A stretch of DNA of 43,262 nt, from UHGV virus genome UHGV-1377064, one strand, 5' to 3'. This document shows positions 20,772 to 22,745 of this stretch, one piece after another. Numbering within the stretch: position 1 is the first letter of the stretch; each line of letters begins with the position of its first letter. The DNA is from a virus. The notes under the pieces were generated by a model that was not told where the DNA came from, searched no databases, and saw only the letters and a list, made by a program, of their open reading frames with translations. A program made the position numbers and the translations under genes.

Positions 20772-21254
20772 ATGAAAAAGGTTTTAGTTTTAATTTTAAG
20801 TTGTTTGTTGGTGTTAGGGGCATGTGGACAAGATGAGGACAAAAACAAAGAAGATGATGCTAAAAAGGTTGAAGTTAAAAAGAAGGAAGAAAACAAAAAA
20901 GATAAACAAAGTCAATCTAAAGAACAAAAACAAGAAAAACCTTATAACAATGATGACGAACCAATTTTAAATGATAACAGAAATGCAAACGACAACAATT
21001 CAAATCAACAGAACAATAAACAAAATCAAAATGTAGATAAAATTGATAACAATGCGTACAACCAACAGCAAAACGGTCAAGTAAATCAAAAAGAAAATAC
21101 AGAAAATGGACTTGACCCAAACTTCGTACGACATAATGACAACATGGTAAAAGAATGGCAAAATCAAATGCGAGAACACAACGAAAACTTTAATCCTGAA
21201 TCTGGTGGAGATTTGTATAACGTCGAAACCGGTAACTACGTTGATGATGAATAA
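20772..21254 (+). CDS. prophage lipoprotein with a low-complexity N/Q/K-rich mature region
   Basis: Signal peptide 'MKKVLVLILSCLLVLGAC' with a lipobox-like LGAC. Confidence 0.5.
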   Translation: MKKVLVLILSCLLVLGACGQDEDKNKEDDAKKVEVKKKEENKKDKQSQSKEQKQEKPYNNDDEPILNDNRNANDNNSNQQNNKQNQNVDKIDNNAYNQQQNGQVNQKENTENGLDPNFVRHNDNMVKEWQNQMREHNENFNPESGGDLYNVETGNYVDDE

Positions 21255-21305
21255 AATTATGGGGTAGTCCACCTACCCTTATTATTTTTTTTACTTTTTT
21301 AAGGG

Positions 21306-22685
21306 GTGATGAATTATGAACGTAGCTATTTACGTTCGTGTCAGGTCAGTACATTAGAACAAAAAGAACATGGCTATTCTATTGAAGAACAAGAAAGGAA
21401 GCTCAAATCATTTTGTGAGATAAACGATTGGAGTGTATCAGATGTATTTATTGACGCTGGTTTCTCTGGCGCTAAGCGTGACAGACCGGAATTACAACGT
21501 ATGATGAATGATATTAAACGGTTTGATTTAGTTTTAGTGTATAAGTTAGACAGGCTTACACGTAATGTGCGTGATCTACTTGATTTATTAGAGGTATTCG
21601 AACAGAATAACGTAGCATTCAGAAGTGCTACTGAAGTTTATGATACATCTACAGCTATGGGTAGACTGTTTGTTACGTTAGTTGGTGCTATGGCAGAGTG
21701 GGAAAGAGAAACCATTAGAGAGCGTGTTATGATGGGTAAACGCGCAGCGATTAAACAAGGTATGATACTCACACCACCACCCTTTTATTATGATCGTGTA
21801 GATAACACTTACATTCCTAATGATTATAAAAAAGTAGTTTTATGGGCATACGACGAAGTGATGAAAGGTAATAGTTCAAAAGCTATAGCTAGAAAATTAA
21901 ACGATTCAGATATACCACCTCCTAATGGCAAAAGGTGGGAAGATAGAACAATAACGAGAGCGCTAAGAAACCCTATAACAAGAGGTCATTATACTTGGGG
22001 AGATGTATTTATAGAAAACTCTCACGAGCCTATTATTACCGAAGAAATGTATCAACAAATAAAAGAAAGGCTAGAAGAACGAATCAATACTAAAATAGTC
22101 AGTCACGTATCAGTGTTCAGAGGTAAATTTATTTGTCCGAGATGTGGTGGCACATTAACAATGAATACAGTGACAAGAAAGAGAAAGAAAGGTTATGTTA
22201 CCTATAAAACGTATTATTGCAACACATGTAAAGCTAAAAAGGAGAGTTTCGGTTTTTCAGAGAATGAAGCATTGAGAGTGTTTCGTGACTACCTATCTGA
22301 ATTAGATTTAGACAAATACAAAGTAAAGACAAAACAAAACGATGATGTTGTTACTATTGATATAGATAAAATTATGGAACAACGTAAAAGGTATCATAAA
22401 TTATATGCTAAAGGGTTAATGCAAGAAGAAGAATTATTTGAATTGATTAAAGAAACAGACGAAACAATCGCAGAATATGAAAAACAAAAAGAATTAGTAC
22501 CCAGAAAAATACTAGATATAGATAAGATAAAAAGTTTTAAAAATGTATTGTTGGAATCATGGAATATATTCTCGTTAGAAGATAAAGCCGACTTTATTAA
22601 AATGGCTATTAAATCTATAGACATAGAGTATGTAGAGCTTAAGAATAGGCATTCCATTGAAATAAAAGAGATAGAATTTTATTAA
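21306..22685 (+). CDS. int: large serine recombinase (integrase). The N-terminus is frameshifted by a 5-bp duplication.
   Basis: 'STLEQKEHGYSIEEQ' resolvase catalytic region. Recombinase domain present. C-terminal zinc ribbon 'CPRCGG...CNTCK'. Confidence 0.7.
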   Translation: MMNYERSYLRSCQVSTLEQKEHGYSIEEQERKLKSFCEINDWSVSDVFIDAGFSGAKRDRPELQRMMNDIKRFDLVLVYKLDRLTRNVRDLLDLLEVFEQNNVAFRSATEVYDTSTAMGRLFVTLVGAMAEWERETIRERVMMGKRAAIKQGMILTPPPFYYDRVDNTYIPNDYKKVVLWAYDEVMKGNSSKAIARKLNDSDIPPPNGKRWEDRTITRALRNPITRGHYTWGDVFIENSHEPIITEEMYQQIKERLEERINTKIVSHVSVFRGKFICPRCGGTLTMNTVTRKRKKGYVTYKTYYCNTCKAKKESFGFSENEALRVFRDYLSELDLDKYKVKTKQNDDVVTIDIDKIMEQRKRYHKLYAKGLMQEEELFELIKETDETIAEYEKQKELVPRKILDIDKIKSFKNVLLESWNIFSLEDKADFIKMAIKSIDIEYVELKNRHSIEIKEIEFY

Positions 22686-22691
22686 CATATG

Positions 22692-22745
22692 TACGGAAGT
22701 ATAGACACTTGATTAATATTTAATGTGTATACTTCCGTATTTTTG
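22692..22745 (+). terminator. rho-independent terminator downstream of int
   Basis: Perfect 12-bp stem TACGGAAGTATA / TATACTTCCGTA with a 24-nt loop, followed by TTTTTG. Confidence 0.5.

Follow-up and report, generated by a model that had tools for sequence, protein, structure and literature searches.

Large serine integrases of the TP901-1 type carry a resolvase catalytic domain, a recombinase domain and a zinc ribbon, in that order. The same order is found in the integrase gene (int) of the UHGV virus genome UHGV-1377064, a stretch of 43,262 nucleotides (nt) referred to here as the window, which is a mosaic temperate siphovirus of Staphylococcus epidermidis from the PH15/CNPH82/E72 group (Rockefellervirus). 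The gene belongs to the large serine integrase family and to the PH15/CNPH82 integrase group. Unlike in the TP901-1 type, however, its codons for strand beta-1 and the body of the gene lie in different frames because of a 5-nt insertion, seen as a tandem pentamer near the 5′ end (Table 1). The integrases of the Rockefellervirus phages PH15, CNPH82, CNPx, vB_SepS_27/48/456/459/E72, phiIPLA7, IME1348_01, and BE20 have the same duplication, Shine-Dalgarno (SD) sequence, both ATG codons and phage attachment site (attP), and these relatives integrate within a gene for a FAD-dependent oxidoreductase, at the core ATATTAAT (PMC8125051). No mention of the frame problem was found in the records of these phages, in the papers on them that were consulted, in literature searches or in a review of recoding (PMC5009743), a coverage that does not extend to the original 2007 PH15/CNPH82 genome paper in J Bacteriol. 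The integrase of phage StB20 is like that of the window in its SD, upstream ATG, start hairpin and MNVAIYVRV codons; unlike it, StB20 has one GTCAG and a continuous canonical frame.

Ribosomal hops in E. coli have reportedly been obtained with constructs around stop or "hungry" codons by Weiss et al. in 1987, O'Connor et al. in 1989 and Gallant and Lindsley in 1998, with hops of tRNA-Val being ascribed to the 1987 and 1989 studies. The site proposed below resembles these in its identical take-off and landing codons, short gap, rare and presumably slow A-site codon and Val at both ends. The E. coli hops were synthetic or stress-induced, whereas the site in int, proposed from its sequence, would be natural, fixed and selected in a Gram-positive host. 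Bypassing in T4 gene 60 likewise involves a phage gene, matched codons and an RNA hairpin immediately 5′ of take-off. Its gap is 50 nt, whereas in int the landing codon would begin 5 nt downstream of take-off with 2 nt skipped, and the codon after take-off is the sense codon AGG rather than a stop. Gap stem-loop and long nascent-peptide signal are also missing: the nascent chain has 9 residues and the sole hairpin lies 5′ of take-off, so that int does not belong to the gene 60 type. The efficiency of gene 60 bypassing is ~50%, whereas that of a hop in int would presumably be low. In the "savior" indel in a G-run of the herpes simplex virus thymidine kinase gene, a frame-breaking viral indel is likewise kept by a trickle of recoded product (PMC5009743). 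There the shift is ±1 in a homopolymer and drug-selected, whereas here a 5-nt tandem repeat is fixed across species.

The Integrase Gene and Its Displaced 5′ End

Read from ATG 21316, the gene begins ATG AAC GTA GCT ATT TAC GTT CGT GTC AGG TCA GTA CAT TAG (MNVAIYVRVRSVH*). The long open reading frame (ORF) runs in another frame from GTG 21306 or ATG 21309 to 22685, encodes 459 or 458 amino acids (aa), and begins (M)MNYERSYLRSCQVSTLEQ. When one pentamer is deleted, the two are joined in a single frame, MNVAIYVRVSTLEQKEHGYSIEEQ, with the canonical start MNVAIYVRVSTLEQ. This one-copy reading aligns from residue 2 with the catalytic domain of TP901-1 integrase (3BVP, KVAIYTRVSTTNQ; E = 5.5e-38), including VAIYxRVST, and it matches the Pfam Resolvase profile over positions 1-143 (153 bits) vs 7-143 (141 bits) for the long ORF. 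A sequence-only reading of the window had described the pentamer, the MNVAIYVRV start at ATG 21316 with its early TAG, the frame of the long ORF and the restoring effect of the deletion, and all were found as it had placed them.

The body of the gene is that of a large serine integrase. Pfam domains PF00239 (3e-41) and PF07508 (7e-22) were found in the long ORF together with PF13408 at 23.6 bits, which is just below the 25.3 cut-off; the four Cys of the zinc-ribbon region are invariant in the homologue alignment, and the recombinase domain and zinc-ribbon/coiled-coil C-terminal part are both present. One correction applies to the sequence-only reading, in which strand beta-1 and the context of the catalytic Ser are disrupted. 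Strand beta-1 and the Tyr and Arg ahead of the nucleophile are lost from the long ORF, but the Ser codon itself (AGT) is in frame there, within VSTLEQ. The canonical beta-1/active-site motif V-A/G-I-Y-x-R-V-S lies in the frame of ATG 21316; it is not contiguous with the body in the long ORF as written and becomes so only if 5 nt are skipped. The window int is 92-97% identical in nucleotides to the int genes of PH15, E72, CNPH82 and others. No deposited genome is identical to the window, the best being 96.6% over int and mosaic elsewhere.

A Fixed Feature of a Functional Gene

The identical duplication (GTCAGGTCAG) was found in 13/13 related S. epidermidis phage genomes examined in GenBank (PH15, CNPH82, CNPx, E72, 27, 48, 456, 459, phiIPLA7, IME1348_01, BE20, HOB 14.1.R1, and PG-2021_93). 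Annotation of the GenBank relatives starts the int coding sequence (CDS) at the counterpart of ATG 21309, for a product of 458 aa. Protein-guided scans of IMG/VR, a one-genome-per-species GTDB set and JGI/ENA metagenomes yielded 127 loci with a recognisable 5′ end, 86 with the duplication and 41 without it. Further carriers came from a DNA-pattern scan and contig look-ups, and the duplication is common to well over a hundred related staphylococcal phages and prophages. Assembly or indel error, which the sequence-only reading had offered as one explanation, is rejected because the identical sequence stands in many independent records, among them the 13 separately deposited phage genomes. Its other suggestion, a slippage-prone DNA site, does not fit either. 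Among more than 120 loci no allele has three copies, the repeat has two units only, and the non-duplicated members of the same clusters carry another 5′ cassette rather than a one-copy version of this one, which is not the pattern of a phase-variable contingency repeat.

Single-copy genes were found in related phages. The S. capitis phage StB20 is ~90% identical, with the same SD, upstream ATG and first codons and one GTCAG only, and the more distant StB12 and StB27 also have a single GTCAG. Comparison of these sequences supports the view that the one-copy gene of StB20 represents the state before duplication, an ancestral MNVAIYVRVST gene whose N-terminus was displaced by the 5-bp tandem duplication, as had been surmised.

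Evidence for function was found in the carriers. An uninterrupted downstream ORF is kept in 73/73 completely sequenced duplication alleles (64 distinct), and the dN/dS of the body is 0.06 at a mean dS of 0.30 (60 distinct window-type alleles), or 0.13 in a second clade. The attP of the window starts 8 nt past the int stop and matches the attP-derived half of the published attL with 2 mismatches, where 0 matches are expected by chance. Among the duplication loci, attP follows int in 29, and in 17 the sequence at this place is the hybrid junction ...ATTAATAT+CGGATGTATACCTAC. These 17 loci are prophages integrated exactly at the bacterial attachment site (attB) published by Fisarova et al. 2021 (PMC8125051). 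In the same study, phages 27, 48, 456, 459, and E72 were induced from lysogens, and all five lysogenised new strains in the laboratory at the same FAD-dependent oxidoreductase site, as confirmed by sequencing (PMC8125051). The duplication is present in 5/5 of these phages. The evidence for a cognate pair of sites thus comprises the attP of the window, 17 related attB loci and laboratory lysogeny of sister phages, the window phage itself being read from its sequence alone.

A pseudogene is ruled out by the intact ORFs, dN/dS and attB junctions. The inactivated integrase of the sequence-only reading is refuted by the same evidence and the five lysogenising phages, as well as by the comparison with homologues that it had itself proposed, in which the N-terminus of the long ORF as written proved to be conserved. 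Assembly error and inactivation are therefore excluded. The integrase gene works, and the 5-nt insertion in it is real and has become fixed and inherited; it is old and widespread, and selection acts on it. To read it as damage or error is wrong. Since phages with the duplication demonstrably integrate, the enzyme must be made in an unusual way.

Some database entries with related integrases carry unexpected labels. L097 (NZ_JBHLXP010000009.1, labelled Rheinheimera tilapiae KCTC 23315) contains a 96%-identical S. epidermidis-type prophage integrase at the staphylococcal attB; its presence in an assembly labelled as a gammaproteobacterium is almost certainly due to contamination with staphylococcal DNA. 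P0002 (labelled Pseudomonas aeruginosa TPA) and P0122 (labelled S. aureus TPA) look likewise mislabelled.

Conservation Upstream of the Insertion

In 91/91 homologues (33-78% identity) Ile5, Tyr6, Arg8, Val9, and Ser10 are invariant, and Val3 is found in 88/91. The frame of ATG 21316 encodes all of these residues. In an ungapped alignment the long frame has Tyr, Arg, Ser, and Gln at the positions of Val3, Ile5, Tyr6, and Arg8. In the Tn3, gamma-delta and Sin resolvases the Arg two residues before the nucleophile is catalytic.

Natural variation points in the same direction. Among all carriers, the only polymorphisms between 21309 and 21344 are 21312 A>T/C, 21319 A>G, 21326 C>G, and 21339 T>C. 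Read in the frame of ATG 21316, these fall in the spacer of the 5′ untranslated region (UTR), change Asn2 to Asp at a variable position, change Ala4 to Gly (which is found in 25/91 homologues) and leave Arg8 silent (CGT>CGC). Read in the long frame, 5/5 are non-synonymous: Asn2Tyr/His, Glu4Gly, Ser6Arg, and Cys11Arg. Ser6Arg is found in the most widespread allele (P0121, 122 contigs), and Cys11Arg lies three residues before the catalytic Ser. Five out of five would have a likelihood of ~4e-4 at the omega of the gene (0.06) and would be unremarkable without selection on the peptide.

Given one and the same alignment of 92 sequences, AlphaFold2 returned predicted local distance difference test (pLDDT) values of 48/52 for residues 1-10/11-20 of the long-ORF protein, compared with 91/78 for P0013, a canonical homologue; since pLDDT follows the alignment, this contrast is only supportive. 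Nucleotide diversity (pi) gives no choice of frame, as third positions of both frames are almost invariant. The segment 21306-21352 is the least variable 30-nt window of the gene (pi 0.002 vs a median of 0.064; rank 0 of 1341).

Start Signals and the Start Hairpin

The spacing of the SD fits the downstream ATG. GGUGAU at 21305-21310 is complementary to the 3′ end of 16S rRNA. From the last base of the GGAGG-equivalent, 21306, the distance is 9 nt to ATG 21316 but 2 nt to ATG 21309. The 9-nt spacing is the geometry of every non-duplicated relative; ATG 21316 is the start position of all of these and is invariant in all duplication alleles. Several relatives have the perfect SD GGAGGTGAT, and none of the SD variants among the relatives has moved upstream to serve ATG 21309. 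With the spacing penalty attributed to the RBS Calculator of Salis 2009, initiation at 21309 is roughly estimated to be ~100-fold below that at 21316.

Gene callers differ on the start of the duplication alleles. In P0134, P0172, P0173, and L367-L371 an internal TTG or GTG was chosen (413, 438 aa) or, in one case, an upstream start (493 aa), and because of such disagreement the public annotation of the integrase N-terminus is unstable. The two shorter database proteins, P0134 and P0172, come from duplication alleles of the ordinary kind and are short because an internal start was called.

The predicted start hairpin ends at the first base of the proposed take-off codon and has z = -2.9 in a 61-nt context. 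It is specific to this cassette, as other cassettes fold at -0.8 to -3.5 kcal/mol, and its presence in StB20 shows that it predates the duplication. Natural variants keep it: A21319G makes a G-U pair, C21326G lies in the loop, and U21339C breaks terminal pairs only, which shortens the predicted stem from 11 to 8 bp at ~-8.1 kcal/mol. In this folding model the hairpin probably keeps integrase translation low. Just as well, the segment could act as DNA, as a palindrome to which a regulator binds.

A Proposed +5 Hop Between Valine Codons

To join the frame of ATG 21316 to the body, a shift of -1, +2 or +5 is required. When -1, +2, -4, and +5 were enumerated by hand, the step from GUC 21340 to GUC 21345 was the only full-match re-pairing that joins both frames. 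In E. coli, hops at a low level from one matched codon to another across a slow A-site codon are well documented, and compensatory recoding of "savior" indels has precedent (review PMC5009743). From the sequence it may be proposed, with a confidence just short of an even chance, that active integrase is made by ribosomes that start on ATG 21316 and on which tRNA-Val then hops by +5, the product being exactly MNVAIYVRVSTLEQ; initiation site and hop are both inferred.

In this scheme ribosomes would be recruited by the SD to start on AUG 21316, as they do in all relatives without the duplication, and would translate MNVAIYVRV until peptidyl-tRNA-Val sits on the GUC at 21340-42 with the rare AGG in the A site. 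In a small fraction the tRNA would then unpair, the mRNA would slip by 5 nt, and the tRNA would re-pair on the identical Val codon at 21345-47. Decoding would restart at AGU, the codon of the catalytic Ser, to give the exact canonical protein, while ribosomes that do not hop would stop at the UAG at 21355. The net effect would be a strong, possibly tunable, cut in integrase output. One speculative addition is that the hairpin, re-folding behind the ribosome, may aid forward slippage, by analogy with what has been proposed for the 5′ stem-loop of T4 gene 60.

The proposed landing codon always encodes Val: it is GTC, with GTT in L065 and GTG in L237/L256/L304/L328. AGG occurs at 3.4 per 1000 codons in the 36 long ORFs of the window, where it makes up 8% of Arg codons, and is also used elsewhere in int. 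For the S. hominis type of integrase described below, the hop product MNVAIYVRVSSYEQ matches the canonical MKVAIYTRVSSYEQ of that lineage. The ~100-fold deficit estimated for initiation at 21309 is of the same order as typical hop efficiency. Protein from the two routes could thus be made in comparable quantity, but it would be canonical only when made by the hop. Taken further, and more tentatively, a selected +5 hop that takes tRNA-Val past a rare AGG from one GUC to the next, directly downstream of a start hairpin, may be required for integrase in many prophages of coagulase-negative staphylococci. It would throttle output, may couple it to translational state (for example to charged tRNA-Arg), and would be carried by a portable cassette on at least four integrases with different targets.

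Other routes into the body frame were rejected. None of the -1, +1, +2, and -4 shifts enumerated by hand gives good re-pairing plus a canonical product; no codon in 21316-21354 re-pairs at -1, and at +2 there is only the near-match of CGU to UGU. Termination-reinitiation after the TAG at 21355 fails for lack of a body-frame start upstream of the Ser codon other than 21306/21309. No phage-encoded suppressor tRNA was found in the window. The site is not a classical -1/+1 frameshift site because it has no slippery sequence and no credible match to a known RNA or frameshift element in Rfam.

Weighing the Explanations

Several points weigh against the hop. Very little product might result, as unstimulated hops usually occur at ~1% or less and a hairpin of -10 kcal/mol already holds the start codon. 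The nascent chain of 9 residues at take-off cannot supply an anchoring signal of the gene 60 type, and drop-off of peptidyl-tRNA may compete with the hop. The matched codons are not independent evidence because they are the automatic result of any tandem duplication, and in the lineages with GUG or GUU at the landing position compatibility hinges on the tRNA-Val that reads GUC in staphylococci. The polymorphism test comprises five events, and the case for the hop is built on sequence. Moreover, the duplication is confined to the cassette with the in-frame ATG 21309 upstream, which is what a start at that codon predicts. If translation began there, the integrase would work with MNYERSYLRSCQ-VST instead of MNVAIYVR-VST; this is the main alternative, less probable than the hop, and of similarly limited credibility is its evolutionary counterpart, that the duplication was tolerated because the cassette already had this ATG with no intervening stop. 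Standard decoding would suffice, the long frame has no stop from 21303 on, ATG 21309 shows no variation among the duplication alleles and is the annotated start in every GenBank record, and AUG 21316 is sequestered in the hairpin. StB20-like alleles and L212, which have a single copy, share ATG 21309, which shows that this ATG came first. By coincidence, a Tyr-Leu-Arg of the long frame stands three residues ahead of where Tyr-x-Arg normally lies, and this Tyr7-Leu8-Arg9, which the polymorphisms leave untouched, could mimic Tyr6-x-Arg8 if Ser-Cys-Gln loops out. On the other hand, ATG 21309 stands only 2 nt from the GGAGG-equivalent and has two bases in the SD duplex, and some gene callers refuse it. 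Ile5, Tyr6, and Arg8 would become Arg, Ser, and Gln, all five polymorphisms would be radical as well as non-synonymous, and AlphaFold2 confidence for this N-terminus is ~50 vs ~90 for the canonical one.

Another near-canonical route or a mixture of products has a small share of the probability. A +2 shift of tRNA-Arg from CGU 21337 to UGU 21339 (...YVRQVST) would retain two Watson-Crick pairs and a G-U pair, and near-invariance of 21306-21352 would fit more than one constraint there. However, the +2, -1, and -4 products all misplace the Arg relative to the Ser, and there is no slippery heptamer. A mixture in which both starts are used and the aberrant form is a DNA-binding but inactive regulator beside traces of hop-derived enzyme is similarly improbable and has nothing specific in its favour. 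Heterogeneity at the DNA level, with integrase supplied by rare one-copy revertants or in trans by resident prophages, is much less probable still. Tandem repeats can contract, and single-copy versions of the cassette exist in the StB20-like alleles and L212. Nevertheless, integrated prophages themselves have two copies (17 attB loci and five induced prophages), so it is not revertants that integrate. Two units make a poor substrate for slippage, no three-copy allele was seen, cluster mates with one copy carry another cassette, and purifying selection on the duplication-linked ORF would not persist in a dead copy. An inactivated integrase or an assembly or sequencing error is hardly credible. 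The broken canonical frame is all that speaks for it, against conservation, intact ORFs, dN/dS, attB junctions and published lysogenisation (PMC8125051).

A Mobile 5′ Cassette

The duplication is always found within the same ~45 nt, GTGATG(A/T/C)ATTATG(A/G)ACGTAG(C/G)TATTTACGTTCG(T/C)GTCAGGT(C/T/G)AGT, and this cassette occurs on at least four integrase bodies, in clusters of 1065, 93, 33, and 824 members. The bodies are a 458-aa S. epidermidis/caprae type (cluster of 1065 members, in which 14/15 of those listed have the duplication form), 461-aa chimeras, a 465-aa S. haemolyticus/borealis type of 67-69% identity, and a 469-aa S. hominis type of 42% identity (cluster of 824 members), in which the match to the window ends right after GTCAGGT. 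S. hominis-type prophages with the cassette (L256, L257, L304, L328, L367-L370) adjoin genes for phosphotransferase system (PTS) EIIC/EIIA, which is a different attB. In S. hominis alleles the landing codon is GTG, and the short frame therefore ends at a TGA directly after AGG.

Forms with and without the duplication occur side by side in the haemolyticus cluster and in that of hominis. The non-duplicated members carry other 5′ cassettes (MKVAIYT..., MNVAIYC...), and the polymorphism is for this reason attributed to cassette replacement by recombination, not to copy-number slippage. Among window-type bodies ~90% carry the duplication. Their single-copy alleles are 0.94-0.95 identical to duplication alleles, which have a median of 0.935 among themselves; because the single-copy alleles are few and equally close, the duplication is not being purged, though recombination offers alternatives. 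Independent recurrent duplications are unlikely: there is no flanking microhomology and the surrounding 45 nt are identical in all carriers, and for these reasons a single origin followed by recombination fits better. From these sequence comparisons, the cassette is taken to extend from the promoter region through SD and start hairpin to codon 10, and to have been joined by recombination to four or more integrases of staphylococcal prophages. The duplication-bearing cassette is the only one with both upstream ATG and hairpin, so its distribution cannot tell the mechanisms apart.

Surrounding Features

The segment 21261-21300 before the SD, CTACCCTTATTATTTTTT(T)ACTTTTTT, is conserved across integrases that are only ~40% identical, and it corresponds to the 40-bp element of PMC2869324. 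In that study a sigma-H-dependent int promoter was located in the conserved 40 bp upstream of staphylococcal int genes (Tao 2010; PMC2869324). The segment probably supplies homology for exchange of the 5′ cassette. The terminator of the upstream gene lies inside this element, and in relatives its stem is kept while its loop varies. The product of the gene just upstream of int (20772-21254) has 160 aa; its signal peptide resembles that of a lipoprotein (LSCLLVLGAC), and a long part of it is of low complexity and rich in Asn, Gln, Lys, and Asp; sister phages have other genes there, for example one for a DUF5067 protein. Elsewhere in phage vB_SepS_456 (L008; MW364973), the CI-like repressor at 112-444 appears as two CDSs of 123 and 183 nt. 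CNPH82 and BE20 have a single 333-nt repressor gene, and the repressor of phage 456 looks disrupted.

Table 1. Positions of the integrase gene, its 5′ signals, the proposed hop site and attP in the window.
Feature	Position	Strand	Details
Intrinsic terminator of upstream gene	21261-21292	+	GGGGTAGTCCACCTACCC + T-run; terminator scan
Shine-Dalgarno	21301-21310	+	AAGGGGTGAT; variants in relatives AGGGAGTGAT, AGGGAGGTGAT, AGGGGGTGAT, AAAGGAGTGAT
Large serine integrase gene	21306-22685	+	resolvase catalytic domain, recombinase domain, zinc ribbon
Upstream ATG, long-ORF frame	21309-21311	+	two bases (A, U) within SD duplex; GenBank start
RNA hairpin (predicted)	21315-21340	+	11-bp stem, CUAU loop, ~-10 kcal/mol; sequesters AUG 21316
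Canonical integrase ATG (MNVAIYVRV...)	21316-21318	+	out of frame with body because of insertion
Proposed take-off codon GUC (Val9, canonical frame)	21340-21342	+	sequence inference; invariant in all duplication alleles
Tandem pentamer GTCAG GTCAG	21340-21349	+	5-nt insertion vs StB20-type genes
AGG, A-site codon at proposed take-off	21343-21345	+	rare Arg codon in phage
Proposed landing codon GUC (Val)	21345-21347	+	sequence; followed by AGT, catalytic Ser, 21348-21350
TAG closing 13-codon ORF from ATG 21316	21355-21357	+	sequence
attP	22693-22740	.	imperfect inverted repeat ACGGAAGTATAGACAC...TGTATACTTCCGT (also given as ACGGAAGTATAGACAC / GTGTATACTTCCGT) around core ATTAATAT

Implications

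Integrase output seems to be held down at several levels, as the cassette has a start hairpin and adjoins the reported sigma-H int promoter. Public clusters (~two thousand member sequences) include staphylococcal integrases whose annotated N-terminus is perhaps never made or is inactive. For genome-engineering mining this means that the annotated ORF, when expressed, could be a dead enzyme, whereas activity should be obtained once 5 nt are deleted. Should the long-ORF protein prove to be the enzyme, it would be a serine recombinase that functions though the canonical Ile, Tyr and Arg around its nucleophile are missing, which would be surprising for the field. If the hop is true, it would be among very few natural cases of bacterial translational bypassing, and no earlier case would concern a site-specific recombinase; the phage and its host are tractable, and lysogeny offers an easy read-out.

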